Source: an uncultured Bacilli bacterium
Lineage (GTDB): Bacteria; Bacillota_I; Bacilli_A; RF39; UBA660
Assembly: GCA_944358775.1 (NCBI GenBank)
Contig: CALVRU010000003.1
Span: 5,783-69,782, forward strand
Reading direction: 5' to 3'
Length of the DNA stretch: 64,000 bases
Part shown: positions 2,569 through 57,804 of the stretch, piece after piece
Layout: the number at the start of each line of letters is the position of its first letter
Position numbering within the stretch: position 1 is the first letter of the stretch
Translations under genes and position numbers: made by a program
The notes under the pieces: model-generated
Told to the model about the DNA's origin: nothing
What the model saw: only the letters and a program-made list of their open reading frames with translations
Database searches by the model: none

Positions 2569-3261
2569 ATGAGTGTTGCGATGGAAAAAATACCATTGGA
2601 AGATCGACCGCGGGAACGTTTCTTAAAAGTAGGAGTCGAAAATCTGAGTAATGAAGAACTGTTATCGATTTTATTAAAAACAGGCTTTAAAGGTCAGAGT
2701 GTACAAGCTGTTTCACGAGAATTGTTATATCAGCTAGGGGGAATGGAACATTTTCAAAATGTTACGATGTCTTATCTGACTAAAACAAAAGGTATTGGCA
2801 AAATTAAAGCGATGGAATTGTTGACTGCTATTGAACTAGGGAAACGTATTTTTTATAAAACAGAGTCCTCAAATCTACTTTTAAAAACGCCGGCGGACAT
2901 TTATGAAAAAATGCGATATTTATTTGTCGGTAAAAAACAAGAATGTTTTTACTGTCTTTATTTTAATACAAAACAAGAATTAATTGAAAGGAAGTTATTA
3001 TTTATGGGAACGGTAAATCGTAGTCTAGTTCATCCACGTGAAGTTTTTAAAGAAGCATATTTAAACAGTGCTTCTGCGATTGTGTGTCTACATAATCATC
3101 CGTCGAATGATTTAACACCAAGTCAGGAAGACAAATGTTTGACGAAGGCTTTAGTGGAAATTGGTGAGTTAAATGGAATTCCAGTAGTAGATCATATTAT
3201 TGTCGGTGATTATGGTTATTATAGTTTTTATGAACATCATCTATTAGAGAGGCATTTATGA
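2569..3261 (+). CDS. radC: RadC-like JAB-domain protein
   Basis: N-terminal ...EDRPRERF...; JAB/MPN metal site HNHPSNDLTPSQED; RBS AGGAAG lies 8 nt before the ATG; sits upstream of mreC as in Bacillus. Confidence 0.85.
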   Translation: MSVAMEKIPLEDRPRERFLKVGVENLSNEELLSILLKTGFKGQSVQAVSRELLYQLGGMEHFQNVTMSYLTKTKGIGKIKAMELLTAIELGKRIFYKTESSNLLLKTPADIYEKMRYLFVGKKQECFYCLYFNTKQELIERKLLFMGTVNRSLVHPREVFKEAYLNSASAIVCLHNHPSNDLTPSQEDKCLTKALVEIGELNGIPVVDHIIVGDYGYYSFYEHHLLERHL

Positions 3262-4046
3262 GAAGAAAAAAACAAGAAAAGAAGAAGCGTATTTTAATTG
3301 GGAGTATTGTTGTCCTTGTTGTAGGAGGCTTATTTTTATTTATTTTTTATCGTCAAGATAAGAATTACTCAATGGTTGGGCAATGGATGAAAGAAGTGGG
3401 TGTCGGAATTACGCGAATGTTTTCTATTCCAGTACAGCAGGTATTATTGCCCTCACCAAACGAGTTGGATCTTAGTTTAAGTAAGGCAAAAGATCAAGAA
3501 ATCGAAGAATTAAAAAAGCTATTAGAAATCAAAAGTACGTATACACAATTCCAGGTAATTACTGCTTTGACGATCGAACGTAATACGGATTATTTTAAAG
3601 AGGGTTTGACGATCAATAAAGGAGAGAAAGACGGAATTCAAAAAGATATGGCTGTTATTACTCCGTATGGATTGATTGGCAAGATCTCTAAAGTCGGTCA
3701 AACATTTAGTGAGGTAAGATTACTTTCTTCTTTATCCGAACCAATTCAAGTTTCTGTTCAGGTGAATAGTCAAGAGGAAACGTACCATGGCGTATTAAGT
3801 GGTTATGATGAAAAGAAAGGACTATTTCGTGTAACTGGAATTGCTTCTCAAAGTACGATTCAAATAGGCGATAAGATAACGACCAGTGGTCTAGGTGGAA
3901 TTTTCCCAGAAGGAATTTATGTGGGAGAAGTAGTAGAAGTGACACAAGATGAATTTGGTATTACGAAGACTTTGTATTTGGCAAGCGGGCAGGATTTTAA
4001 TCAGATCAATTATGTGAGTGTCTTAGTGAGAGGAGTGGAATCGTGA
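3258..4046 (+). CDS. mreC: rod shape-determining protein MreC
   Basis: N-terminal TM, coiled-coil region, then a beta-rich periplasmic domain; overlaps the radC stop and is directly followed by mreD. Confidence 0.8.
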   Translation: MRRKKQEKKKRILIGSIVVLVVGGLFLFIFYRQDKNYSMVGQWMKEVGVGITRMFSIPVQQVLLPSPNELDLSLSKAKDQEIEELKKLLEIKSTYTQFQVITALTIERNTDYFKEGLTINKGEKDGIQKDMAVITPYGLIGKISKVGQTFSEVRLLSSLSEPIQVSVQVNSQEETYHGVLSGYDEKKGLFRVTGIASQSTIQIGDKITTSGLGGIFPEGIYVGEVVEVTQDEFGITKTLYLASGQDFNQINYVSVLVRGVES

Positions 4047-5898: not shown

Positions 5899-6005
5899 AA
5901 TCTCGATAATTTTTGTCGAATTGTGTCAAGTTTCGTTGACTTTATAAAAATAGCGATGATAGAATGAATGTGTAGCAAAAATAACGATAGGGGGGAAAAG
6001 AAAAA

Positions 6006-7442
6006 ATGGACACAAGAGAAGACAATGTGAAAAAAATTGTAGCTGTTGTTCTTGTGATCGTGGTCATCATTGCTATCCTTATCGGAGTACGTAGTTGTGG
6101 GAAGAAGGACGAAAAAATAGAACCAACTCCAACACCAACTGCGACTGTTACTCCAGAACCAACCTCGACACCTGATGATGAAGAGAACGATACTAATAGC
6201 AATCATAATTACGATACAGGTTATAACAGACCAGATACGGATGTTACAGTTCCGGTGAATAACGAACCAGAAGTAACACCGACACCGACACCAGAAGTAA
6301 TTGATTTAGAAGGATTAAAAAATGCAGTTAAAGAAGCAAGTACTGTAATCGATAATCTCGTTTTTGAAGAAGGAAGCTCAGATTCAACATTAATCGATTT
6401 GTTAGCAGAGTTATCTACTGTAGAAGAAGAAGGAGCTATGTTACTTCAAGAAGCGGATTTGACACAAGCGAAAGTAGATGCGAAACAAGCGGAAATCGAA
6501 GTGTTAATCGATGAAATTACGGAACGAATTGCTTGGTTGACAGAAGATGCTACTAATGCTGTCAGTTTAGCAGAAGAAAAAATTACAAGTGAAAATTATG
6601 AAATGGCAGTGATTGCCGTAGGTAAACTACCAATTAGTGAAGTAAAAGAAGAATTACAGAACCGTTTGCAAGCGATTGAATCACTTGTGGGAACGATTGC
6701 GTATATTACAAATGAAGACGAGTTAATGGAAGCATTAGCAAATGAAGACATTACGACGATCGAATTAGAAAACGATTTGGAGGATATCTCTGGATTTGTT
6801 ATCGATCGACCAATGAATTTCGAAGGTAATGAATATCAGATGACGTTCAAGGAGTTCGAATTAAAAGGTATCACGATTATCAGTGATGATGTTGTTTTAA
6901 ATAACGTTACCGTAGCTCTTACAGATGAAATTGACTGGCAAGGAAGCTATGGTGTTCATGTGTATAATGCGAAAAATGTCGTATTAAATAACTACACTGG
7001 TATGAATGCAGATGCGGCTTTATTAGTAAATGCATCGGAAGTAGAATTAACTGGTATTACCAATGTTTCGAATAATGAATTTGGAGGTATCGAAGTTTCC
7101 AAAGGAATCGGTGAGGATTTAGAAAATTCTGTTCTTACTATTTCCGGTACCATCGTGAATGAAACCGAAGCTTATGCTCTTCCGACGGTATGGGTTATTA
7201 AAGGCGAAGGAACGGTTAATGGAACTTTTGCAGCAACCAATGAAGAGATCAAAGAAGATCAAATTCAATATTACTTAGTAGAAGAGAATGCGACGGATTC
7301 GGAAGTTGTTGTCGACGACGATGAGAAAGAAGAAGAAACAATCGAAGAACAACCAGCGGTAGAGGAAGAACAAGAGGAAATGGTTATAGAAGAAATCGTC
7401 GGTTCTGCTGCCGAAGTAGAAAGCGAACAAGAAAGTGAGTAA
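6006..7442 (+). CDS. membrane-anchored surface protein with Pro/Thr linker, beta-helix-like repeats and acidic tail
   Basis: Signal-anchor helix, (PT)n linker, repeated N-V-T/N-N-Y motifs suggesting a parallel beta-helix, Glu-rich C-terminus. Confidence 0.45.
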   Translation: MDTREDNVKKIVAVVLVIVVIIAILIGVRSCGKKDEKIEPTPTPTATVTPEPTSTPDDEENDTNSNHNYDTGYNRPDTDVTVPVNNEPEVTPTPTPEVIDLEGLKNAVKEASTVIDNLVFEEGSSDSTLIDLLAELSTVEEEGAMLLQEADLTQAKVDAKQAEIEVLIDEITERIAWLTEDATNAVSLAEEKITSENYEMAVIAVGKLPISEVKEELQNRLQAIESLVGTIAYITNEDELMEALANEDITTIELENDLEDISGFVIDRPMNFEGNEYQMTFKEFELKGITIISDDVVLNNVTVALTDEIDWQGSYGVHVYNAKNVVLNNYTGMNADAALLVNASEVELTGITNVSNNEFGGIEVSKGIGEDLENSVLTISGTIVNETEAYALPTVWVIKGEGTVNGTFAATNEEIKEDQIQYYLVEENATDSEVVVDDDEKEEETIEEQPAVEEEQEEMVIEEIVGSAAEVESEQESE

Positions 7443-24279: not shown

Positions 24280-25557
24280 ATGAAGAAGCAGCAAAAAAAA
24301 TCGTTATCTTTTGAGTTTTTTAAGAAAAGAGTGCGCGTTTCTGTAATTGTCGTAACTCTTCTTTTGGGTGCACTTCTTTTGCTCATTAGTTATAGTTATG
24401 CTTTTTATACCATTTCTTATGAAAAGAAAAACGCTTTAACCTTAACAGCAGGCTCGATTTCTTATACATTGACAAGTGGTTCGATGAATGAAAGACAAGA
24501 AGTAACGGTTGGGGCAAATTCGATGCTTACGTTTACGGTCAATTTAAAAAGCAACAATGAAATCGATTCCTTGTATCAACTTTATTATAGTGGAACACTA
24601 CCAAGCGGAGTAACGATTTCTTATAAGACGAGTGTACCCGATGGAGTAATTGAAAAAGGAGCAACCGAAGTAATTGTCTTAGCGATCGAAAATACAAACA
24701 GTAGTAGTAAGATAATTACGATTGGTGTACAAGGAGGATTATTAGATAAACCACTAGAACAAGAAGCAAATACAACGTCCATTAAAGGATTGTATCAAGT
24801 AAAGAAGCCAACGATTACACTTAATACTACAACGGTTACGATCAATGCAGGAGATAGTTATCAAGTGATGACGGGAGTCAGTGCGAAAGATCCTTACGGA
24901 AAAGATATTACGAGTAAAATTAGTTACAGCCCGACAAGTTGGGATAATCATACGATTGGAACTACTAAAATTACTTATCAAGTGACCGATGACTATGGAC
25001 AGAGTGCAAGTTCTACTCGTTCGATTACCGTTAATCGAGTTTATGTTTATAATTATGAGTCGGATCATTTAGTCACAAATGGATGGGAACAATTTTTTAA
25101 GACATGTGATTCTGCTTCCTTTTATCAAGGAGGCTATCATAAGGCAAATTTCATATACGATTATGGAGGTACCACCGATGATTTAATTATGAATGGAATG
25201 GTAAAATCATCCCTTTTAGCGACCGAACGATCCATTGTATCTTTAGCTACCAATTATATGATAGATTTATCAAAATATAAACGTCTCGCATTTCGACATG
25301 ATGTAAAAAATTTAACAACAACTGGTGAATTAGGAGCGCATGTTGGAATTGGCTGTTTTAAGTCGGTTAATAACATTAATCATGCAGAACCAGTAGTCGG
25401 AACAGAATTAACTGGTAAAGGGACTACTCCCGGATATTATTATTTTGATGTAAGTAATATTAATACAAGTTGTTACCTAGGATTTTACATTTTTTCGGAA
25501 GCTATCGATGACAATACAACTTGGTATGTGTCTATTTCACGAGTCTGGCTTGAATGA
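24280..25557 (+). CDS. secreted protein with SipW-cognate-like signal peptide and Ig-like domains
   Basis: N-terminal ...SYSYAFYTISYEKKNALTLTAGSISYTL resembles the TasA/camelysin-class signal (AxF.D..N.F.AG.L.L); Big-like region TITLNTTTVTINAGDSYQV... Confidence 0.45.
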   Translation: MKKQQKKSLSFEFFKKRVRVSVIVVTLLLGALLLLISYSYAFYTISYEKKNALTLTAGSISYTLTSGSMNERQEVTVGANSMLTFTVNLKSNNEIDSLYQLYYSGTLPSGVTISYKTSVPDGVIEKGATEVIVLAIENTNSSSKIITIGVQGGLLDKPLEQEANTTSIKGLYQVKKPTITLNTTTVTINAGDSYQVMTGVSAKDPYGKDITSKISYSPTSWDNHTIGTTKITYQVTDDYGQSASSTRSITVNRVYVYNYESDHLVTNGWEQFFKTCDSASFYQGGYHKANFIYDYGGTTDDLIMNGMVKSSLLATERSIVSLATNYMIDLSKYKRLAFRHDVKNLTTTGELGAHVGIGCFKSVNNINHAEPVVGTELTGKGTTPGYYYFDVSNINTSCYLGFYIFSEAIDDNTTWYVSISRVWLE

Positions 25558-27105: not shown

Positions 27106-27423
27106 TAATGGGTTGTAGTAAAAATGTTATCCTTTTTTCACTTTTGATCCTTTCTTACGATTGAGTCATTTATTTGGTTCACCAATGAATTGGTTATAAA
27201 ATCGAAAGAAATGTTTTTTTCGAATGTTCTAGTTGCCAGGAAACATTTTGAACCCCCGCATATCTTGCTAGGAAACGCTATCAACCCTTTATTTATTATC
27301 TAATATAGAATATGTAAAGAGCCTTTTTTGGTGTGTTACTTCTACCTATTTTTTTTTGCCTTGTGTTTTCTTTGGAATTCTTTTCAAAACATAGTATAAT
27401 AATAACAAGTAGGTGATAAAAAC

Positions 27424-28608
27424 ATGCGTATTCTATCTTTTTTGCTATGGCCCATATTTCTTTTGTTTGTTTTGGTTATTAGTATTTTTCCAATTCAAAT
27501 AGCGAAGGAAGATTCGTTAGAATATCTTGCCCCTTTTGAAGTATCTGTTTATGAGGATGCGATGTTATCTGATTTTGTTCAAGTAAAGAATGGAACATTA
27601 GAAGACGTTGCCATCGACACTTCTAGCTTGGGTATCCAACCGATTTCTTTTTCTTATCGAGATCAACAAGGAGTGCGGAAAAAGCGGACGATTGGAATTC
27701 AGGTGGTCGATCATACGCCGCCTTTGATTTGGTTAAGTAATTCTTATACGGTTGTAAAAGGAACGACTTCTTTTATCGAAGACATTTTATGTGGTGATAA
27801 CTATGACAAAGAACCGCATTGTTATATCGAGGGGGAATACAATTTAAATGAAGTGGGCAATTATCCACTTTTGTATGTAGCAGAAGATAAAAGTGGTAAT
27901 GTTGCGAAACAAGAGTTTACTTTAAACGTAATCGAGAAAAAAAAGGGAAGTTCGTCTTCTTCTAAAACGACGACATCTTTTCAAGAGATTTTAAAAAAGC
28001 ATCAAAGTGAACAGGTAATGGTCGGAATCGATGTATCGAAATGGCAAGGTGAAATCAATTTTGCAGAATTGAAAAAAGCAGGATGCGAGTTTATTATGAT
28101 TCGACTTGGTTCGCAAGGTGGGGTCTTAAAAGATTCGACGATCGATCCTTATTTTGAAGCGAATTTAAAGCAGGCAAAAGAACTTGGATTCCAAGTGGGA
28201 GTGTACTATTATTCGTATGCTTCGAGTACGGAAGAGGCCCGTTTACAAGCGGAATGGGTGTTATCGCAATTGAATGGGGAGAAGCTCGATTTGCCGATTG
28301 TATTTGATTGGGAATGTTGGAGTCATTTTCGAACGATGAAGATCAGTTTTTATGACTTAAATGAAATTAGCAATGCATTTTTAGATACGATTCAACAAGC
28401 GGGCTACGAAACGATGCATTATAGTAGTAAAAACTATTTAGAAAAGATTTGGACGACGATCGATCATGATGTCTGGTTAGCCCATTATACCAAGGCGACG
28501 AACTATCAAGGGGCATATCGAATGTGGCAACTTTGCAATAATGGCCGAATTGCGGGAATCGATGGCGATGTCGATATTGATTTGCTCTATTTGCAAGAAG
28601 GAGAATAA
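27424..28608 (+). CDS. membrane-anchored GH25-family muramidase with N-terminal Ig-like domain
   Basis: GIDVSKWQGEINF...GCEFIMIRLG plus downstream DxE/acidic residues typical of GH25 (Cpl-1/Lyz2-like). Confidence 0.65.
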   Translation: MRILSFLLWPIFLLFVLVISIFPIQIAKEDSLEYLAPFEVSVYEDAMLSDFVQVKNGTLEDVAIDTSSLGIQPISFSYRDQQGVRKKRTIGIQVVDHTPPLIWLSNSYTVVKGTTSFIEDILCGDNYDKEPHCYIEGEYNLNEVGNYPLLYVAEDKSGNVAKQEFTLNVIEKKKGSSSSSKTTTSFQEILKKHQSEQVMVGIDVSKWQGEINFAELKKAGCEFIMIRLGSQGGVLKDSTIDPYFEANLKQAKELGFQVGVYYYSYASSTEEARLQAEWVLSQLNGEKLDLPIVFDWECWSHFRTMKISFYDLNEISNAFLDTIQQAGYETMHYSSKNYLEKIWTTIDHDVWLAHYTKATNYQGAYRMWQLCNNGRIAGIDGDVDIDLLYLQEGE

Positions 28609-33437: not shown

Positions 33438-33470
33438 GGAAACAATTTCCAATTCGGAAATTGTTTTTTT
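33438..33470 (+). terminator. rho-independent terminator
   Basis: GGAAACAATTTCC-aattc-GGAAATTGTTTT followed by a T-run. Confidence 0.6.
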
Positions 33471-33512
33471 ATGATAAAATAAAGGATAGAGTAGAGTTTC
33501 TTTTCCTTTAGG

Positions 33513-33543
33513 CTTGCAAAAATGCCTAGGGGGGGGGGTATAA
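33513..33543 (+). promoter_or_regulatory. promoter with G10 homopolymer in the spacer (candidate phase-variable promoter)
   Basis: TTGCAA (33513-33518), 19-nt spacer containing G10 (33528-33537), TATAAT (33538-33543), then an RBS GAGGTG and the ATG at 33571. Confidence 0.5.
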
Positions 33544-33570
33544 TGATTTATAGAATAGTAGAGGTGTAGC

Positions 33571-35574
33571 ATGAATAAGAAAAAAAGAATGATTTTAATA
33601 GGAAGCAGTTTGATGGCGTTGTTATTCGTTACAGTAGGAGTCACGTATGCTTTCTATATCTATCGAGGTCAAGGTCAAAAAGAGAATACAGTAAAGACCG
33701 GATCCTTAACTTTTGTCTATGATGAACAACGAGCAGAAGGAAATCAAGTGACGCTCACAAATGCGTTTCCAATGACCGATGACCAAGGAAAAGTTCAAAC
33801 GGGAGAAAATAATGTATTTGAGTTTCAGATCACTGCAACCACGAAAGGAGCACCTATTTCTTATGAGATCTATTTGACAAAAGAAGAAAGTTCGACGTTA
33901 TCGGAACAAGTGGTAAAAACCTATTTAACGAAAGTAACGGATAATAGTGAAACCGCAGTGGTAGATACGAGAAATCAAAGAGAGATCAACTTGTATAGTG
34001 AACTAGGAGATACCACATTAGTAGCACAAGGGAAGACGTTGTATCAAGAAACGATCCCAGCCAGTCAAGCAACTTATAATCAAACATTCCGGTATCGGAT
34101 GTGGATCGATGAAGATGCAAGTCAAATGCAAGATGGAGAATGGATTTATAATGGAAAGAGTTTCAGTGTGAAAGTCAATGTATATGCATCCAATGAAGAA
34201 ATGAGAGCTCCATTAGAAGAAGTATTAGTCTATGAAGATACCACAACGGCAAATGTACCTGAGCTTGCCGAAGGAATGATCCCTGTTGTATATAGTATAA
34301 CGAAACATGCTTGGGTGAAACAAGATTTAGAGAAAAGTTATGCGTATCAAGAGCAAGTATGGGCGAATGCCGTAACCGTAGTAGAAAATGGAACGAATAC
34401 GAGAGAGTACTATCAAAGTGCCCCAGCAGAAACCGTTATACCGATGGAAGATATTAATACGATGTGGGTGTGGGTCCCAAGATATGAATACAAGTACACG
34501 AATTTAGGAACTCAATACGCTGGAGGAACAAAGGCACAACCAGGAGAGATTCAAATTAATTTTATTTCGAAAGAGACAACAAGTCCAAGTAGTAGCGAAT
34601 ACAAAGTACATCCAGCCTTTACGTTTGGCGAAGAAGAATTAAGTGGGATCTGGGTTGGAAAGTTCGAAACGACAGGAACACTCCCAAGTACCAATTACTG
34701 TAGAGATGAAAGTTGTAATGTAAGTACAGTTACGATTAAACCAGGAGTAACCTCTTTAAGAAATCAACAAGTAGCAAGTTTGTTCTATATGACAAGAAGT
34801 ATGCAGACAAACAATGCAAGTACGTATGGATTTGCAAGTGACAATAGTTATAATATCCATATGGCAAAGAATTCTGAATGGGGAGCAGTTGCTTATTTAA
34901 GTCAGAGTCGATATGGAAAATATGGTAATCCGGATTATGAAGGAGTAAACAAAGAGATTTATCAAAACAAATCTTCTTCTTTCATTACAGGAAGTAGCAA
35001 TGGAACGCCAAGTACCGAAAGTACGAATCCTCAAGTGAGTTATGATACACCTTATTCTGGATATGGGGCATCTACTACTGGAACCATTTATGGTATCTAT
35101 GATATGAGTGGCGGATCATGGGAATATGTGATGGGAAATTATAATCGATATTCTGGATATACAGCACGAAGTTACACTATAGAGGAAGCGAAAACAATTT
35201 TAGGAAGAACAGACAATCAAGCGATTGGAATCTGGAATAGTGGATTTAATGGTCCAGTATATGGAAAAGATAGTGATGGAAGTGAAATGAGTTGGACAAC
35301 AGGAGTTGAATTTCCAGAAGAGAAGTACTTCGATTTATATACAACTTCGAATGGAACAACAGCATGTAATGGAACATGTGATGGCCATGCTTTAACGGAG
35401 ACAGCCGGATGGTATAACGATTCCTCATGGATTGTTACGGCATCTAGTCCTTGGTTCGTTCGTGGTGGTGTCTGGAGCAGCACTGCGAATGCCGGTGTGT
35501 TCTATTCCAACGTCACGTACGGTATCGCGGGTGGCATCTACGCGTCTCGGGCGGTGTTGGCCCCATATTTATAA
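33571..35574 (+). CDS. large secreted protein: SipW-cognate-like signal peptide, beta-rich middle, C-terminal FGE-sulfatase (SUMF1)-like domain
   Basis: N-terminal ...TVGVTYAFYIYRGQGQKENTVKTGSLTFVY; C-terminal AKNSEWGAVAYLS and RGGVWSS...YASRAVL resemble FGE-domain motifs. Confidence 0.55.
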   Translation: MNKKKRMILIGSSLMALLFVTVGVTYAFYIYRGQGQKENTVKTGSLTFVYDEQRAEGNQVTLTNAFPMTDDQGKVQTGENNVFEFQITATTKGAPISYEIYLTKEESSTLSEQVVKTYLTKVTDNSETAVVDTRNQREINLYSELGDTTLVAQGKTLYQETIPASQATYNQTFRYRMWIDEDASQMQDGEWIYNGKSFSVKVNVYASNEEMRAPLEEVLVYEDTTTANVPELAEGMIPVVYSITKHAWVKQDLEKSYAYQEQVWANAVTVVENGTNTREYYQSAPAETVIPMEDINTMWVWVPRYEYKYTNLGTQYAGGTKAQPGEIQINFISKETTSPSSSEYKVHPAFTFGEEELSGIWVGKFETTGTLPSTNYCRDESCNVSTVTIKPGVTSLRNQQVASLFYMTRSMQTNNASTYGFASDNSYNIHMAKNSEWGAVAYLSQSRYGKYGNPDYEGVNKEIYQNKSSSFITGSSNGTPSTESTNPQVSYDTPYSGYGASTTGTIYGIYDMSGGSWEYVMGNYNRYSGYTARSYTIEEAKTILGRTDNQAIGIWNSGFNGPVYGKDSDGSEMSWTTGVEFPEEKYFDLYTTSNGTTACNGTCDGHALTETAGWYNDSSWIVTASSPWFVRGGVWSSTANAGVFYSNVTYGIAGGIYASRAVLAPYL

Positions 35575-35686
35575 AGACACTATTATTCTGAAAAGAAATG
35601 AAGTAGAAAAATCATTTCTTTTTCTTTTGCTATCTTTTTTAAAATCAATTATAATAGAGATGAACGTGGAAAAGGTAGTGATAAGA

Positions 35687-37489
35687 ATGAGTATGATACA
35701 GATCATGGATGAAGATCTTGCTAACAAGATTGCTGCTGGAGAAGTTGTCGAGCGGTGCATGAATGTTGTAAAGGAATTGGTTGAAAATTCAATCGATGCG
35801 AAGAGTACGGAAATTCATATTGATTTGATTGACTCTGGTATTAAAGAAATTCGCGTTGGCGATAATGGAATTGGCATGAACAAGGAAGATGCAGTGCTTG
35901 CTTTTTCACGACATGCTACTTCGAAACTAAAATCGATTGAAGATTTATTTCAAATTCATTCTTTGGGATTTCGTGGCGAAGCGTTACCATCAATTGCGGC
36001 AGTTTCACATGTTGTTTTAAAAACATCGGATGGAACCAGTGGGACGCTTGTCGAGATCAATGGTGGTAAGTTAGAAAAAGTCGAAGCGACCGATCTTCGT
36101 CAAGGGACAATCATTACCGTTTCGGATTTGTTTTATAATACGCCGGTTCGCTTAAAGTATTTGCGCAACCCATATGCGGAACTAGCTAGTATTACGGATT
36201 ATATTAATAAGATGGCTCTTAGTTATCCGGCAATTAAATTTGTTCTTACCAATAATAATAAAATATTGTTAAATACGGATGGAAGCAATCGTCTTTTAAA
36301 AGTAATTCATGCGATTTATGGATTAGAAGTTACGAAAAAAATGGTTGAAATTCATAATGCAAATGACGATTATGAGATCAGTGGTTATATTTCTTATCCG
36401 GAGATGATGAAAAACAATCGGAACGCCATTACGATTATGGTCAATGGTCGTGTGATTAAGAATAATGAAGTGATTCGCTACATTTGTGATAGTTATCATA
36501 CTTATATGCCACCGGATAAATTTCCAATTGCAGTAATCAAAATTGAAGTCGATCCTATTTTAGTCGATGTGAATATTCATCCGACGAAGATGGATGTAAA
36601 ATTTTCGAAGATCGAGGCTTTAAAAGAGTTGATCCTATCGACTATTTCTAGTACTTTAGAAAAGCTTACTTTAATTCCAGATGCAGGCCTTAAAACGGTT
36701 TCAGAAGGAAACACGACAAAGGTTGCCAATTATTATGGAACGTATTCCTTGAGTGATCGTGAATATGATATCGATAAGAAAAATGAAGAGTTTGCTCAAT
36801 TTGAAAAAATGTCTCTTTCGCTAGAAGTGGCGGAAGATCAAGACACGATTACGAATACATTACAATCCTCTTCGAATGAATCGGAACACGAAGAAAAAAA
36901 AGAGCCACGAATCAAGGAAATGTATCCAGTAGGTTTAGTGCACGGTACTTATATTGTGGCCGAAAATGAAGATGGAATGTTTCTGATTGATCAACATGCC
37001 GCGAATGAAAGAATTAATTATGAATATTATTTAAAAGAGTTATCGAATCCAACCCCTCATAAAACAGACTTATTAGTACCGATCACTTTAGAGTTTCCGA
37101 GTAATGAATGGATCATATTAAAAGAGCATCTTGATTTACTTACCAAAATGGGGTTTGAATTTGAAGACTTTGGATTCCAAACATTGCTTATTCGAACTGT
37201 ACCACTTTGGTTACCAAAAGGGAATGAAGAGTTAGCGATTCGTAAGATTATGGATATTATTACATCGATTGAAGACTTTTCACTTGCTAAGTTTTTTGAT
37301 CATGTTGCTGCGACAGTGGCATGCAAGGCGAGTATTAAAGCCAATGATTTTATTACGGAAGATGATATGAGGGTATTGTTGTCGCGATTACGAGCATGTC
37401 AAAATCCATTTACTTGTCCACATGGACGACCGACGATTATCACTTATTCGAATTATGAATTAGAACGTTTATTTAAACGAGCTATGTAG
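35687..37489 (+). CDS. mutL: DNA mismatch repair protein MutL
   Basis: MSMIQIMDEDLANKIAAGEVVER (GHKL ATPase N-terminus), ...GFRGEAL..., C-terminal dimerisation domain with FTCPHGRP. The ORF-track extension back to 35432 is an artefact of the upstream GC-rich patch. Confidence 0.9.
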   Translation: MSMIQIMDEDLANKIAAGEVVERCMNVVKELVENSIDAKSTEIHIDLIDSGIKEIRVGDNGIGMNKEDAVLAFSRHATSKLKSIEDLFQIHSLGFRGEALPSIAAVSHVVLKTSDGTSGTLVEINGGKLEKVEATDLRQGTIITVSDLFYNTPVRLKYLRNPYAELASITDYINKMALSYPAIKFVLTNNNKILLNTDGSNRLLKVIHAIYGLEVTKKMVEIHNANDDYEISGYISYPEMMKNNRNAITIMVNGRVIKNNEVIRYICDSYHTYMPPDKFPIAVIKIEVDPILVDVNIHPTKMDVKFSKIEALKELILSTISSTLEKLTLIPDAGLKTVSEGNTTKVANYYGTYSLSDREYDIDKKNEEFAQFEKMSLSLEVAEDQDTITNTLQSSSNESEHEEKKEPRIKEMYPVGLVHGTYIVAENEDGMFLIDQHAANERINYEYYLKELSNPTPHKTDLLVPITLEFPSNEWIILKEHLDLLTKMGFEFEDFGFQTLLIRTVPLWLPKGNEELAIRKIMDIITSIEDFSLAKFFDHVAATVACKASIKANDFITEDDMRVLLSRLRACQNPFTCPHGRPTIITYSNYELERLFKRAM

Positions 37490-40279: not shown

Positions 40280-40381
40280 TTTCTCACCTCACTTTTTGTA
40301 ACATTTTCATTCTACCAAATAATCCTAAAAAATGCAAATAAAACTGACGTTTTTTGGGAAAAATAATGCTAGGTGAGAAAG

Positions 40382-41446
40382 ATGCATGAAATCGATTTAA
40401 AAAAATACCAAGTACGTACCGATTTGATTTTGGATAGTATCGTTCATCAAAATTTGCGGGATCTAGAAAAAAAGGAACGACTTCACGGCAAAATTCGGAC
40501 GACCGAAGTGTATTTAGATGCTAAGAGTGCCAAGACTTTGGATAAGATGGAAGGGACTTATCTAACGATTAGTTTTATCGATATTACGGACTCCAGTCGC
40601 CAAGAACAATTAGGAGAAGTATTAGTCGAAGAACTCACTCATCTTTTGGAACTATCTGGGATTAAAGCGACGGATAAATGCTTTGTCGTTGGTCTTGGCA
40701 ATCGTGAATCGACACCGGATGCACTTGGTCCTAAAGTAATCGATGATATTTTAGTGACGAAATATTTATTTGACTTCGATCCATCACAAGTATCCAAAGA
40801 ATATCGCAATGTATCTGCTTTTATTCCGGGGGTAATGGGCTCTACTGGAATTGAATCAAGCGATGTTATTTTAGGAATAATTGAGCGTACCAAACCGGAT
40901 TTTCTGATTGTCATCGACGCTTTAGCCGCTTCGAATATCGATCGCTGTAATAAGACAATTCAACTGACCGATACTGGTATTCATCCAGGAAGTGGCGTTG
41001 GCAATAGTCGAAAAGAAATTTCCAAGGCAACGATTGGAATACCAGTAATTGCGATCGGGGTACCGACCATTGTCGATGCTGTTACAATCGTTTCTGATAC
41101 GATTCAGTTTATGTTAAAACAATTTAGTTACAACAAAGAAAACTTGCGAAATCATCGCCATAAATTGATCCCCAGTATTCATCGCAATTATTTAAATCAT
41201 CAAACGAATTTAACGGCCAAAGAGAAGGAACAGCTACTTGGAATGGTCGGCATGTTAGAGGAAGATCAAATGAAATCTTTAATCTTTGAAGTTTTAACAC
41301 CAATCGGATATAATTTGATGGTAACTCCCAAAGAAGTTGATTTTGTCATCGAAAAATTAAGTAAAGTGATCTCTCGTAGTATCAATCAATGTCTTCATCC
41401 CAAATTGCGAAAAGAACTAGAACAGCGTAAATCCGACAAAACCTAA
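40382..41446 (+). CDS. gpr: spore germination protease (GPR endopeptidase)
   Basis: VVGLGNRESTPDALGPKV, DTGIHPGSGVGN and LMVTPKEVD follow B. subtilis Gpr closely; divergent from rpsT as in Bacillus. Confidence 0.9.
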   Translation: MHEIDLKKYQVRTDLILDSIVHQNLRDLEKKERLHGKIRTTEVYLDAKSAKTLDKMEGTYLTISFIDITDSSRQEQLGEVLVEELTHLLELSGIKATDKCFVVGLGNRESTPDALGPKVIDDILVTKYLFDFDPSQVSKEYRNVSAFIPGVMGSTGIESSDVILGIIERTKPDFLIVIDALAASNIDRCNKTIQLTDTGIHPGSGVGNSRKEISKATIGIPVIAIGVPTIVDAVTIVSDTIQFMLKQFSYNKENLRNHRHKLIPSIHRNYLNHQTNLTAKEKEQLLGMVGMLEEDQMKSLIFEVLTPIGYNLMVTPKEVDFVIEKLSKVISRSINQCLHPKLRKELEQRKSDKT

Positions 41447-41492
41447 CGTCATATTGTGGTATTCTCTTTCATAGAATGAAGGGAGAGTAGAT

Positions 41493-42497
41493 ATGAAACA
41501 AATGAAATTGAAAAAGAATAAAAAGAAATCTTCGAAAAAAAAGTGGTATATTTTTCTTCTTTGTACCGCGATGGTTCTTACGTTTTGTTATGAGGCCATG
41601 ATGCATTTGGAATTTAATATATCGAACGAAGAGTTTATTCGTCGGCTACTACAAGATGGGAATCATCATAACAATTCTGTTCAAACAAGTAATAATGTGT
41701 TGACGGAAGTATTACAATTTTTTTCGGGGATTAATTTTCAGGATGCCACTTCGATTTTGCAAAAAAACTATCAAGGTTTGACGGACCTTAGTGTAGATAG
41801 TGACCAACAGATTAGTCTAGAGGATGCTTCTAAATTGAGTGAATATATTGAAAATCCGTATCCAGACAAGGTTACCACCGATCCCTTGGTTTATATTTAC
41901 AATACTCATCAATTAGAACAGTACAGTAAAAGTAATATCGAAAGTTATAATGTTACTCCCAATGTGATGATGGCAAGTTATATTTTGAAAGAAAAGCTAA
42001 ACGATCTTGGAATTTCCAGTTTAGTAGAAGAACAAAACGTGACGGAACTCTTACAGATGAACAATTGGAATTATGCTTCTAGTTATAAAGTGACAAAGAT
42101 GTTAATGGAAGATGCGAAGGAAAAAAATCCAACTTTAAAATATTTTGTCGACTTGCACCGAGATTCAGTTACAAAAGGAATTTCGACTGCCGAAATCAAT
42201 GGAAAAAATTATGCTAAAATCATGTTTATTGTCGGTCTTGAAAATCCCGATTATGAAAAGAATTTAGCGATTACGAACGATATCAATGAACGCCTAAAGA
42301 AAAAGTATCCTGGTATTTCACGCGGGATTTACAAAAAAGAAGGAAAAGGTGTGAATGGAGTCTATAATCAAGATGTCAGTCCGAATGCAATTTTAATTGA
42401 ATGTGGTGGATATGAAAATACCATTGAGGAGGTTTTGAATACGATTGAGGCAATCGCCCAAGTATTGGCGGATTATATAGGTGATAACAATGGGTAA
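41493..42497 (+). CDS. spoIIP: stage II sporulation protein P (SpoIIP-like amidase)
   Basis: Signal-anchor; VYIYNTHQLEQY...LHRDS core; follows gpr as in Bacillus. Confidence 0.75.
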   Translation: MKQMKLKKNKKKSSKKKWYIFLLCTAMVLTFCYEAMMHLEFNISNEEFIRRLLQDGNHHNNSVQTSNNVLTEVLQFFSGINFQDATSILQKNYQGLTDLSVDSDQQISLEDASKLSEYIENPYPDKVTTDPLVYIYNTHQLEQYSKSNIESYNVTPNVMMASYILKEKLNDLGISSLVEEQNVTELLQMNNWNYASSYKVTKMLMEDAKEKNPTLKYFVDLHRDSVTKGISTAEINGKNYAKIMFIVGLENPDYEKNLAITNDINERLKKKYPGISRGIYKKEGKGVNGVYNQDVSPNAILIECGGYENTIEEVLNTIEAIAQVLADYIGDNNG

Positions 42498-53797: not shown

Positions 53798-54814
53798 ATG
53801 TTTAATAAACTATATGAAAAAACCAAACGATTTATCATCGAAAATTACAAAATACTAATCGTCTATCTTGTTTTATTTGCGATTATTTTATGGCCTGTCC
53901 CATATTATATTTATACAGGAGGCGGAACTCTCCCGGTTAATTCTAAGATTACGATCGATCAAGAAACGGAAAGTGCCGGCAGTTTTAATTTGGCATACGT
54001 TTCGGAAATTAAGGCGACTGTCTCGACCTATCTTTTAAGTTTTCTTTTTCCGAGTTGGGAACGGGTGAAAGTAAGTGATGTGACGATCAGTGATACCGAG
54101 ACAACAGAAGATGTGATGATACGCGATCAAATTTTTTTAAACGATGCGAATCAGAGTGCAATTAAAGTAGCTTATGAGAAAGCCGGTAAAAACTTCACGA
54201 TCGAAAAGGAGGTAAATCGGGTGATTTATCTCGATCCACAAGCCCAGACAACTTTGAAAATAGGGGATACCCTATTAGCGGTCGAAGGGGTAACGGTTAC
54301 TGATACAACGGAATTGAGAGAGTTCGTGAAAACGAAAAAAAAAGGTGACTTGTTGACATTAGAAATCGAACGTGACGGAGAAAAAATGCAAGGAACAGCA
54401 ACGGTTCAAGAAATCAATGGAGAACTTCTATTGGGAATTTCTTTTTTAAAAGAGTACATTTACAAAACGGATCCTAATTTAACACTTCATTTTTCAAGTA
54501 ACGAGTCTGGTCCCTCCGGTGGCTTGATCATGGCTTTGTCGATCTATGATAAGCTAATTCCAGAAGATTTAACGCACGGTTTGAAGATTGTCGGTACGGG
54601 AACGATCGATAGTGATGGAAAGGTCGGCGAAATCGGTGGTGTTCGATATAAGCTAAAAGGCGCGGTTTCACAGAACGCAGATATTTTTCTCGTACCAAAT
54701 GGTGCCAATTATGAAGAGTGTATGGAGTTAAAAGAAAAAAACAATTACGATATAAAGATCATCGGAGTATCTACTTTCGATGAAGCGGTTCAGGCGCTAG
54801 AAGAGCTTTCTTAG
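53798..54814 (+). CDS. YlbL-like PDZ plus Lon-protease (S16) C-terminal domain protein
   Basis: N-terminal TM; PDZ region; SNESGPSGGLIMALSIYD resembles the Lon serine site. Confidence 0.7.
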   Translation: MFNKLYEKTKRFIIENYKILIVYLVLFAIILWPVPYYIYTGGGTLPVNSKITIDQETESAGSFNLAYVSEIKATVSTYLLSFLFPSWERVKVSDVTISDTETTEDVMIRDQIFLNDANQSAIKVAYEKAGKNFTIEKEVNRVIYLDPQAQTTLKIGDTLLAVEGVTVTDTTELREFVKTKKKGDLLTLEIERDGEKMQGTATVQEINGELLLGISFLKEYIYKTDPNLTLHFSSNESGPSGGLIMALSIYDKLIPEDLTHGLKIVGTGTIDSDGKVGEIGGVRYKLKGAVSQNADIFLVPNGANYEECMELKEKNNYDIKIIGVSTFDEAVQALEELS

Positions 54815-55186: not shown

Positions 55187-55248
55187 ATTCTTGTCTTTTT
55201 TTCTTGATCAAGTTATGGTAAAATATGGATAGAAAAAGAGTGATAAAA

Positions 55249-57804
55249 ATGAAACGTAGTGAAGTAGATCGCAATCAGTTGTCTCCAATGATGAGACAGT
55301 ACATGGAAATTAAAGATAAATACGAAGATAGTATTATCTTTTTTCGACTTGGCGATTTTTATGAAATGTTTTTTGAAGATGCACTGACAGCATCGAAAGA
55401 ATTAGAGCTTGCCCTTACTGGAAAACAGGCAGGACTTGCTGAACGCGTTCCGATGTGTGGAATTCCCCATCATTCCTATCAAACGTATTTGGACAAGCTT
55501 ATCGATAAAGGCTATAAAGTGGCGATCGCCGAACAATTACAAGATCCAAAAGAAACAAATGGTATGGTCGATCGCGATGTCATCCAAGTTGTTACCAAAG
55601 GAACACGACTCGATTATTCCCTATCTGAGAAGGATAATAATTTTATCGGTAATATTTTTGATTTTGAATACTGTTATGGGGTTAGTTTTACGGATATTTC
55701 GACTGGCCAATTCTACATGATGTTTCTAGAGCACGAAACGGAGCAGTTGCTACGGGAGATTGTTAATCGCAATATGAAAGAAGTAATTGCAAACAGTAAG
55801 ATCGATCGGGAAATCGTTCGTGTACTTCGGGAAAATTACAGCGTGATGGTAACGATTCAAGACGATATTTATTCCGCGAACGATTATGATTTTTTATTTG
55901 AAAAGATTCAAGATATCCGAATTATTACGACGGTCCGTCATTTACTTGCTTATTTAGCTGAAACCAAAAAAGGAAATTTGGCGCATTTGCAAGCAATTGA
56001 AATGATCGATGTAAATCAATACTTGGAATTCGATATTCACACGAAGAAAAATCTAGAATTAACGGAGACTATGCGGCTTCATGAACGGACCTTCTCATTG
56101 CTATGGCTTTTAGATAAAACGAAAACAGCCATGGGAGGCAGACTTTTAAAAATTAATATCGAACAGCCTTTACGAGACCGCAAAGAAATCGAACGGCGTT
56201 ATCAGATTATCGAGACTTTTTTAACGGAATTTATTTTAACGGAAGAATTGCGCAAAGAATTGGAACCAGTTTACGATTTAGAACGGTTAGTAGGTCGAAT
56301 CAGTTATGGTAATTTAAACGCCCGAGATTTGATTCAGTTACGTAATTCGCTTGCTCATTTGCCAGCAATTCATCGTTTGCTAGAAGAATTACACTACGAT
56401 AAAAATGTCGAGGAGTTAAACGAACTATATGATTTGTTACAAAAATCGATTAATGAAGATGCTCCAATCGGCGTTCATGAAGGCGGTTTGATTCAAAGTG
56501 GTTATCATCAAGAGTTAGACGAACTTCGTAAAATTCGGAGTGGTTCCAAGGACTTTATCGTACAAATGGAAAACGATGAGAAAGAACGAACCGGAATTCG
56601 TAATTTGAAAGTCGGTTATAATAAGGTATTCGGTTATTATATCGAAGTAAGTAAAAGCAACATTCCGTTGATTAAAGAGGAGTTTGGTTATGAACGAAAA
56701 CAAACCTTGGTCAACTGTGAACGCTTTATTACGCCATTATTGAAAGAAAAAGAAAATATTATCTTAGGCGCCGAAGAGAAGATTATCAATTTGGAATATC
56801 AGTTATTCATGGAAATTAGAGAACAAGTAAAACAATACATGGGGCGCATTCAGAGAATTGCGAAAGTAATTGCCGAAGTGGATATGATGCAAAGTTTGAC
56901 GAAAGTGGCGGAAGAAAATAATTATGTAAGACCGACCTTAACGACGGAACGAATCATCGATATTCGCGACGGAAGACATCCGGTCGTTGAAAAAGTAAAC
57001 CGCATCGATTATGTGCCAAACGATATCGTCATGGGTAAAGATACGAATATTTTATTGATTACTGGTCCCAATATGGCTGGAAAAAGTACTTATATGAGAC
57101 AAGTTGCAATTATTGTGATTATGGCTCAAATAGGTTCTTTTGTACCGTGTAAAAGTTGTACCATTCCACTATTCGATCAAATCTTTACGAGAATTGGGGC
57201 GAGTGATGACTTAGTCAGTGGGGAATCTACTTTCATGGTGGAAATGAAAGAAGCGAATCGGGCCATTCAAAAAGCAACGGAAAACAGCTTAATTCTATTT
57301 GACGAACTAGGACGTGGAACAGCCACTTACGATGGAATGAGTTTAGCCCAGGCGATTTTAGAGTATATTCATGATAAGATTAAAGCAAAAACATTATTTT
57401 CGACTCATTATCACGAGTTAACTGCGCTTGCATCTACTTTGCCAAACTTAAAAAATGTACATGTTTCGGCGATTGAAGAAGACGGTAAGATTACTTTCTT
57501 GCACAAAGTGAAAAATGGGGCAGTAGATAAAAGTTACGGTATTCATGTAGCATCGCTTGCTCAATTACCAGCTTCCTTAATCAAACGGGCGGAAGAAATC
57601 TTAAATATTTATGAACATAAGAATCAAAAACAAGAAACATTTACTCAAACCTCTTTGTTTTTCGACTTTGAAGACGAGAAGAAAGAAGAACCGACATCAA
57701 ACGAAGCTTTGGAAAAATTGGAAACCTTAAATCCGTTGGAAATGACTCCGATGGAAGCACTTAGTGCCTTGTTTGAACTAAAACAGATGCTAAAGAAAAA
57801 ATAG
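55249..57804 (+). CDS. mutS: DNA mismatch repair protein MutS
   Basis: N-terminal SPMMRQYMEIKDKYEDSIIFFRLGDFYEMFFEDA; Walker A GPNMAGKSTYMRQ; STFMVEM signature. Confidence 0.95.
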   Translation: MKRSEVDRNQLSPMMRQYMEIKDKYEDSIIFFRLGDFYEMFFEDALTASKELELALTGKQAGLAERVPMCGIPHHSYQTYLDKLIDKGYKVAIAEQLQDPKETNGMVDRDVIQVVTKGTRLDYSLSEKDNNFIGNIFDFEYCYGVSFTDISTGQFYMMFLEHETEQLLREIVNRNMKEVIANSKIDREIVRVLRENYSVMVTIQDDIYSANDYDFLFEKIQDIRIITTVRHLLAYLAETKKGNLAHLQAIEMIDVNQYLEFDIHTKKNLELTETMRLHERTFSLLWLLDKTKTAMGGRLLKINIEQPLRDRKEIERRYQIIETFLTEFILTEELRKELEPVYDLERLVGRISYGNLNARDLIQLRNSLAHLPAIHRLLEELHYDKNVEELNELYDLLQKSINEDAPIGVHEGGLIQSGYHQELDELRKIRSGSKDFIVQMENDEKERTGIRNLKVGYNKVFGYYIEVSKSNIPLIKEEFGYERKQTLVNCERFITPLLKEKENIILGAEEKIINLEYQLFMEIREQVKQYMGRIQRIAKVIAEVDMMQSLTKVAEENNYVRPTLTTERIIDIRDGRHPVVEKVNRIDYVPNDIVMGKDTNILLITGPNMAGKSTYMRQVAIIVIMAQIGSFVPCKSCTIPLFDQIFTRIGASDDLVSGESTFMVEMKEANRAIQKATENSLILFDELGRGTATYDGMSLAQAILEYIHDKIKAKTLFSTHYHELTALASTLPNLKNVHVSAIEEDGKITFLHKVKNGAVDKSYGIHVASLAQLPASLIKRAEEILNIYEHKNQKQETFTQTSLFFDFEDEKKEEPTSNEALEKLETLNPLEMTPMEALSALFELKQMLKKK

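Follow-up and report, generated by a model that had tools for sequence, protein, structure and literature searches.

A poly-G tract as a probable length-variable promoter spacer of a DGR target gene in an uncultured gut Bacilli bacterium

In the 64,000-nt stretch of DNA analysed here (the window), a run of ten guanines separates putative -35 and -10 elements upstream of a gene for a 667-aa DGR variable protein. We consider it probable that this tract is a length-variable promoter spacer, in which slipped-strand changes would set the -35/-10 spacing of the gene. Read directly, the layout on the forward strand is CTTTAGGC TTGCAA AAATGCCTA GGGGGGGGGG TATAAT GATTTATAGAATAGT AGAGGTG TAGC ATG. The -35-like hexamer TTGCAA (33514-33519) is followed by a 19-nt spacer (33520-33538) made up of AAATGCCTA and the G10 homopolymer (33529-33538, by run count and regex), the perfect consensus -10 hexamer TATAAT (33539-33544), the Shine-Dalgarno sequence AGAGGTG 4 nt before the ATG (33560-33566) and the start codon at 33571. 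Direct reading and coordinate checks thus bear out the TTGCAA, the 19-nt spacer with ten G's and the TATAAT of the preliminary description; the site is real, although the interval given there, 33513-33543, is off by one base at both ends. The TATAAT lies 26 nt and the tract 32 nt upstream of the gene, which implies a 5' UTR of about 20 nt if transcription starts about 7 nt past the -10. The spacing of the hexamers from the Shine-Dalgarno sequence and the ATG is that expected of a promoter for this gene.

The GC content of the window is 34.6%, slightly above the 33% or so first claimed, and the G10 tract is the sole G/C run of at least 7 in the 64 kb. The earlier claim that it contains no comparable G/C homopolymer holds, as the next longest is a G6 at 5990-5995; C runs of 6 or more are absent from the window. 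For 64 kb with such a base content, chance predicts 0.006 G runs of at least 10. Among A and T, the longest runs of the window are A9 and T9 (54335-54343 and 27349-27357). A simple promoter scanner did not list the TTGCAA-19-TATAAT site, because it takes spacers of 16-18 nt only. It did match TTTCCA-18-TATGAT at 33446-33475, a weak promoter-like site, and an extended -10-like motif, TGATAAAAT, is present at 33472-33480, 49 nt upstream of the tract; transcription from the promoter-like sites at 33446-33480 would put the G tract in the 5' UTR. An inverted repeat around the -35 (TAGGC...GCCTA) was dropped as an element since it is not conserved in paralogues.

To judge from the sequence, the 667-aa gene is its own, monocistronic transcription unit, because terminators are found upstream and downstream and mutL has its own promoter. 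The upstream gene, for a 119-aa protein, ends in an intrinsic terminator on the + strand (33440-33470; stem AAACAATTTCC / GGAAATTGTTT, loop AATTC and a T-run) with a hairpin of -13.2 kcal/mol (RNAfold). A hairpin search placed a terminator-like hairpin, AGAAATGA / TCATTTCT with a T-run, after the stop codon of the 667-aa gene (35594-35628, + strand), and the promoter scan placed the mutL promoter, TTGCTA-17-TATAAT, at 35627-35655. Co-transcription with mutL was rejected on account of this hairpin, the separate mutL promoter and the unrelated contexts in which paralogues are found. The usual mutS-mutL pair is split in the window, with mutL (35687-37489) directly downstream of the poly-G gene and mutS (55225-57804) 18 kb away. 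Both mismatch-repair genes are present; tract instability therefore does not come from an obvious repair defect. Genes for a germination protease (Peptidase_A25), SpoIIP, SpoVIF and SpoIVA are found at 40373-42497 of the window and at L112:5093-7243, from which it follows that the lineage forms endospores; this is at odds with the label 'uncultured Tenericutes' on some related MAGs. Three other putative surface or secreted proteins are encoded in the window without G/C tracts (24280-25557, 27424-28608 and 6006-7442). Two of these have bacterial Ig-like surface domains, in one case fused to a GH25 lysozyme, and the third has a pectate-lyase-like adhesive domain.

The tract differs in length between strains. 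Exact-sequence look-up of the 667-aa protein and of P0001 gave no match, and the orthologous locus was reached via the neighbouring 119-aa, mutL and 208-aa genes. The exact 119-aa upstream protein is encoded on more than 20 contigs from independent samples, which have the synteny SMC / 136-aa / endonuclease / 119-aa in common. Tract lengths were counted by regex at the locus in the window and in seven other assemblies; in short-read assemblies homopolymer length may be wrong by one. Promoters of the form TTGCAA-AAATGCCTA-Gn-TATAAT have G10 in the window, L116 and L119, G9 in L121 and G8 in L118, while those of the form TTGCAA-AAATGCCT-Gn-TATAAT have G9 in L117 and G10 in L120 and L122. G8, G9 and G10 correspond to spacers of 17, 18 and 19 nt. 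Upstream of the promoter, six contigs match the window over 4.9 kb and the G8 contig L118 does so over 942 nt (99.6%); identity ranges from 98.6 to 100%, so that the seven contigs represent conspecific strains. Since tract length varies on both flanking haplotypes, repeated change is a better explanation than a single inherited one. The comparison shows that between strains the tract mutates far faster than its flanks. The preliminary description had proposed such a comparison, and the tract proved not to be invariant, with G8, G9 and G10 in the seven other assemblies; the 17-18 nt spacers that it expected from the loss of one or two G's are present in L118 (G8) and in L121 and L117 (G9).

Two contigs with 96%-identical genes start inside the tract, L113 with GGGGTATAAT and L114 with GGGTATAAT, their first letters being GGGG and GGG, respectively, followed by TATAAT. 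Several other contigs end 44 nt before the tract. One strain (L123 and L132, after position 1900 and 4919, respectively) departs from the window right past the upstream terminator, and its divergent sequence is similar to the region upstream of the promoter of paralogue L112. By its sequence, this locus may be a different family copy or a recombinant.

The 667-aa protein has more than 4,400 detectable relatives, and species-representative genomes show a multi-copy family of uncultured gut Bacilli. Members are found, among others, in MAGs that bear the labels 'Tenericutes' and Candidatus Onthousia and come from the guts of rabbit, chicken, human and other hosts. Among loci L001-L080, at least 8 copies were found in one MAG (CANQIE, Lapin-030 bin56) and at least 9 in another (CAMMBX, ERR4304505 bin.69), and some copies stand in tandem arrays about 2 kb apart (L043, L062, L072). 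These copy numbers equal or exceed the largest target numbers in a DGR survey, which are eight tandem targets for Stenotrophomonas and seven that are non-adjacent for Treponema (PMC5758913). A scan of metagenome contigs gave only distant paralogues of at most 36% identity, except for 54% over a short fragment (L098), and no orthologues.

Poly-G tracts are associated with this family in a strand-specific manner. A G run of at least 7 was present within 400 nt upstream of 30 of the 86 family genes with enough upstream DNA. In about 0.6 Mb of fetched related loci, all 41 G runs of at least 7 were on the coding strand of the family gene and 35 of them preceded a recognisable family ORF by at most 400 nt; the remaining six were in the same leader types, with the downstream ORF cut off or disrupted. 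The lone C7 in the same 0.6 Mb belongs to a GC-rich hairpin that follows a VR (the variable region described below). The promoters fall into three classes. Class 1 has the form GTTGAC(G/C)T-G9-TAGTTT-TATAAT with a 16-nt spacer. Class 2, to which the promoter in the window belongs, has the form TTG(A/C)(A/C)A-9 nt-G9..G11-TATAAT or TATGNT with spacers of 18-20 nt (e.g. L111, L112, L115, L026 and L059), and the TATAAT is directly 3' of the tract in all promoters of the window's class. In class 3 the tract lies within a transcribed leader. Paralogous promoters of the same design as in the window have G10 (L111), G11 (L112) and G9 (L115); the sequences upstream of their -35 are unrelated, and the -35 of paralogous promoters is TTGACA or TTGCCA where the window has TTGCAA.

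Comparisons between MAGs gave further length differences: G6 (L071) and G9 (L060) were found in different MAGs with flanks identical over at least 90 nt on each side. An interrupted tract, GGGGTGGGG (L018:2940-2994), occurs in a promoter homologous to one with G10 in another MAG (L006:80-142), and is a candidate 'locked' allele. A pure G tract has been kept at one position and on one strand in paralogues that share as little as about 35% identity, which is difficult to account for unless the tract itself is under selection. When the tract length is in frame, gene callers carry the N-terminus through the G tract (MGGGIMIYRIIKRCT-MKKK...; L115:71-2116, protein P0005; L111:91), and databases therefore contain spurious N-terminal variants.

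The 667-aa protein (33571-35574, + strand) was characterized from its ORF and from structure and sequence searches. It has a Lys-rich start, a hydrophobic helix and a GVTYAFY motif, and its N-terminus, MNKKKRMILIGSSLMALLFVTVGVTYAFY, is presumably like TasA/camelysin signals. SipW-dependent TasA/camelysin fibre proteins have an N-terminal signal of the type ...GGT(F/W)A(Y/A)F and a TasA beta-sandwich fold, and the GVTYAFY motif may be a signal of this type. A TasA-like beta domain (about residues 40-210) is followed by a C-type-lectin/FGE-fold domain (about residues 330-667). An AlphaFold model built on 49 homologues had a pLDDT of 73, with 85-94 across most of residues 270-450, and the sole match in a PDB sequence search was 5VF4 (TaqVP of Thermus aquaticus). 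Neither Pfam nor NCBIfam gave a match above threshold for the full protein. The C-terminal half matched FGE-sulfatase (PF03781) at 17.7 bits, below the gathering score of 23.3 for the FGE/SUMF family. The VR is displayed on the C-type-lectin fold. The protein is likely secreted or surface-displayed. Compared with the DGR proteins TaqVP (5VF4), TvpA of Treponema denticola (2Y3C) and Mtd of a Bordetella phage, both the TasA-like N-terminal module and the copy number of the family (at least 8-9 per related MAG) are unusual.

Comparison with template repeats and with other strains placed the variable region (VR) in the last ~32 codons before a conserved SRAVLA motif (35448-35543, + strand). It is followed by an IMH-like GC-rich element of 20 nt, GTCTCGGGCGGTGTTGGCCC (35544-35563, + strand), which forms the 3' boundary of adenine mutagenesis, is the same as the end of the template repeat (TR) in L113 and is common to all compared VRs and the TR. 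The TR is an AAC-rich repeat, ...TCCAACAACACGAACGGTAACGCGAATGGCAACAACGC-GTCTCGGGCGGTGTTGGCCC, downstream of the close paralogues L111 and L113, and the comparisons thus use a TR from closely related contigs and not from the window. Between the VR of the window and the TR of L113 there were 14 mismatches, all 14 at template adenines (27 A in 116 nt); compared with the TR of L111, just two non-A differences were found, both in the IMH. Proteins 92-96% identical to that of the window differ almost exclusively over the ~45 residues at the C-terminus. Beside mutL, the VRs of other strains are 71-87% identical, whereas the next 600 nt are 99% identical, and at this same site the counts of adenine/non-adenine differences are 14/0 (L141), 15/1 (L143) and 16/1 (L140). 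Since these strain differences are at template adenines at the same site, this very copy is being diversified. On the sequence evidence, this confirms that the window gene is a DGR variable-protein target whose VR is diversified at the locus.

The 64-kb window contains neither a TR-like repeat nor an RT motif, and the gene is therefore a remote target. Remote targets are a documented arrangement for chromosomal DGRs (PMC5758913), so that absence of an RT and a TR does not exclude membership of the DGR targets. The TR sequence was absent from the viral contig set searched, and there is no sign of a prophage-borne cassette. In L037, L076 and L089, family genes adjoin RVT_1 reverse transcriptases that contain IGNYTSQ and YMDD, both DGR motifs. 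L076:1-4672 is a complete DGR cassette, of which the first gene has a poly-G promoter (TTGACA-GGTA-G10-TGATGG-TATAAT, 165-174), followed by the VR (~1534-1618), the TR (~1909-1993), a 120-aa Avd-like ORF (2260-2622) and the RT (2951-3991). If this cassette is one operon, the tract might gate the mutagenesis machinery too. A perfect 12-bp GC-rich hairpin, CACGGGCCACCC...GGGTGGCCCGTG, is located about 55 nt past the IMH in paralogues close to a cassette (L113:2040-2160, the tail of L115 and L111:2143-2270); it is the same kind of inverted repeat as promotes retrohoming in Bordetella phage. A GC-rich inverted repeat is absent downstream of the IMH in the window, where only the AT-rich terminator hairpin follows 30 nt on; the remote copy in the window lacks the 12-bp hairpin and its VR is diversified all the same. 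Such repeats are found in 34% of DGRs only (PMC5758913). A role of the tract in retrohoming was rejected because of its distance of 1.9 kb to the VR.

On the preferred reading, the 667-aa gene would be driven by a sigma-A-type promoter, TTGCAA - 9 nt + Gn - TATAAT, and slipped-strand mispairing in replication would add or remove G's and so shift the spacing. Alleles with G8 (17 nt) are predicted to be ON and strongest, those with G9 (18 nt) intermediate, and those with G10-G11 (19-20 nt) weak or OFF. The window allele has G10 and a 19-nt spacer, for which a low or OFF state is therefore predicted. Most assembled alleles have spacers of 18-20 nt, above the optimum; on this model most copies would therefore be weak or OFF, which is plausible for a gene family. 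Across the family, each copy in a repertoire of lectin-fold binding proteins would probably be gated stochastically and on its own, and their ligand-binding tips would be rewritten independently by a DGR acting in trans. On our analysis, the controlled gene is of the kind that is usually phase-varied, being both one of multiple secreted binding proteins and a DGR target. Strain polymorphism, paralogous promoters and the strand-specific association with the family support the phase-variable spacer reading proposed at the outset; from the analogues porA, opc, hif and vlp we infer promoter use, spacer-length-dependent activity, and the rate and reversibility of switching.

The class 3 sister loci appear to use the tract differently. 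About 26 leaders consist, in this order, of an extended -10 promoter, the conserved AGAAAGAAGGTA and a short uORF that encodes ..(T)(R/C)LQxVTW and then Gly codons supplied by the G tract. Of the three frames, two stop 5-18 nt past the tract, and in most leaders the third continues for another 46-69 nt, or for 78-90 nt in the case of L035 and L046. This long frame stops inside the terminator-like hairpin, wherever one was located, just before the family gene. Assembled copies are mostly in the short frame and four are in the long frame. With RNAalifold the SD region of the uORF pairs with the conserved UACUUUCUUU downstream, in a helix that is invariant and without covariation support. In Rfam, the window matched nothing at the gathering score and six related loci matched nothing at E <=1. 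The class includes L008, L011, L024, L031, L035, L041, L043, L044, L048-L050, L054, L060 (e.g. L060:2778-2925), L062, L064, L071, L072, L083 and L084. This arrangement could possibly represent a phase-variable leader-peptide attenuator, a reading that does not apply to the locus in the window.

What is observed is length polymorphism, which would also arise if the tract were a neutral mutational hotspot that varies because G10 is slippery, with expression independent of its length; the assembled spacers of 18-20 nt are all suboptimal, which fits such a view. We regard it as improbable, since an unselected homopolymer should decay by substitution, whereas paralogues down to 35-50% identity, in MAGs from several gut hosts, retain a G tract on one strand and at one site in the promoter. 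Interrupted versions are rare (L018), and the tract is always next to a consensus -10 or inside a 16-20 nt spacer. Slightly less probable still is that the tract belongs to a leader transcribed from the upstream promoter (TGATAAAAT, 33472-33480) and acts after initiation, for example via the frame of a uORF. The class 3 loci offer a precedent, as a conserved uORF holds the tract there, with an extended -10 promoter before it and a terminator after it. In the window an ATG at 33522 (ATG CCT AGG GGG...) begins a frame that, with G10, runs as far as a TAG lying 1 nt ahead of the main ATG, and a weak promoter-like site is present at 33446-33475. However, this ATG has no Shine-Dalgarno sequence and is missing in paralogue L112 (AAAATCACTT-G11), the 32 nt from tract to gene contain no terminator, and class 2 conserves a -35 of the form TTGNNA and a perfect TATAAT rather than a peptide. 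The uORF reading of the window tract was dropped because of the missing Shine-Dalgarno sequence and the unconserved ATG.

G-rich spacers can alter promoter geometry, which would fit a tract that binds a protein or forms a DNA structure (G-quadruplex-like or a rigid G:C block) and so modulates the promoter with no change in length. It seems very unlikely here: length alone varies while the flanks are constant, and conservation of the neighbouring sequence does not extend across promoter classes. A single run of G8-G11 cannot make a stable intramolecular four-tract quadruplex, and the G-quadruplex was dropped for this reason. If simple spacing is what matters, a mutated tract of equal length (e.g. 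GGGGAGGGGG) would keep full, stable activity. Finally, several contigs end at or near the tract, as they might if it were a sequencing or assembly artefact (two-colour poly-G, chimeric joins). We give this hardly any credence, because the tract has unique sequence on both sides and its place with respect to the gene is constant in assemblies made independently in many studies and with many assemblers (ENA, Logan, NCBI MAGs). The length-variable promoter spacer thus remains the preferred reading of the window locus.

Repeat tracts between the -35 and -10 are known from Neisseria meningitidis porA (poly-G) and opc (poly-C) and from Haemophilus influenzae hifA/hifB (TA repeats). In these surface-protein genes the repeat number sets the spacer length and thereby, stepwise, the promoter strength (high, intermediate or none). 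The window likewise has a repeat tract between putative -35 and -10 hexamers. However, porA, opc and hif are single genes of Gram-negative pathogens, whereas the window is from uncultured spore-forming gut Bacilli and its gene belongs to a multi-copy, DGR-diversified family. The vlp genes of Mycoplasma hyorhinis have poly-A in the promoter spacer of each surface-lipoprotein copy, which results in combinatorial ON/OFF switching. Here the likeness extends to a multigene surface-protein family with a homopolymer in the spacer of each copy in low-GC Bacillota/Mollicutes, but vlp has poly-A and repeat-based size variation, whereas the window has poly-G in an AT-rich genome and adenine mutagenesis by a retroelement. 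The Vlp system and the hif reference (van Ham 1993) are both cited in a review (PMC11868660).

For Campylobacter jejuni NCTC11168, 29 poly-G loci with tracts of at least 7 are given in PMC4965091. This genome, too, is AT-rich and rare poly-G runs of at least 7 mark phase-variable surface-related genes, but the tracts are mostly in coding regions and act by frameshift, unlike the promoter spacer in the window. In Bifidobacterium breve, replication slippage at a G tract switches a sortase-dependent pilus ON and OFF (PMC9187656); this is a G-tract surface switch in a Gram-positive gut commensal, but the tract is inside the coding sequence and not in a promoter spacer. The literature searched describes no repeat-tract promoter on a DGR target. 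A full-text search for DGR with phase variation, homopolymers or repeats gave nothing relevant, and the word 'promoter' is absent from the DGR survey PMC5758913. The switch design is already known; the novelty lies in the host, in the deployment of the switch throughout a large family of paralogues and, most of all, in its link to DGR targets.

More tentatively, and with somewhat less than even confidence, we propose that poly-G tracts provide family-wide gating of DGR-diversified lectin-fold proteins, with a single retroelement rewriting all the tips and with two switch designs, the promoter spacer and the leader attenuator. If true, this would be a two-tier diversification strategy, antibody-like or var-gene-like, and the class 3 attenuator, in which tract length would set the uORF frame and only one frame would bring ribosomes as far as the terminator, would be a phase-variation switch of a novel type. 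Even without this, the probable spacer switch at a DGR target would join the two 'programmed hypermutation' devices that are best known in bacteria within a single gene family, one acting on the expression of a copy and the other on what that copy binds. Spacer-length phase variation is documented almost wholly in a few cultured pathogens, and here it would operate in uncultured spore-forming gut commensals. It would also give a handle on the expression control and function of DGR targets, which are not addressed in the DGR literature searched, and would account for the fragmentation of assemblies of these genomes at these loci. For the gut community, it predicts strong cell-to-cell heterogeneity of surface lectins.
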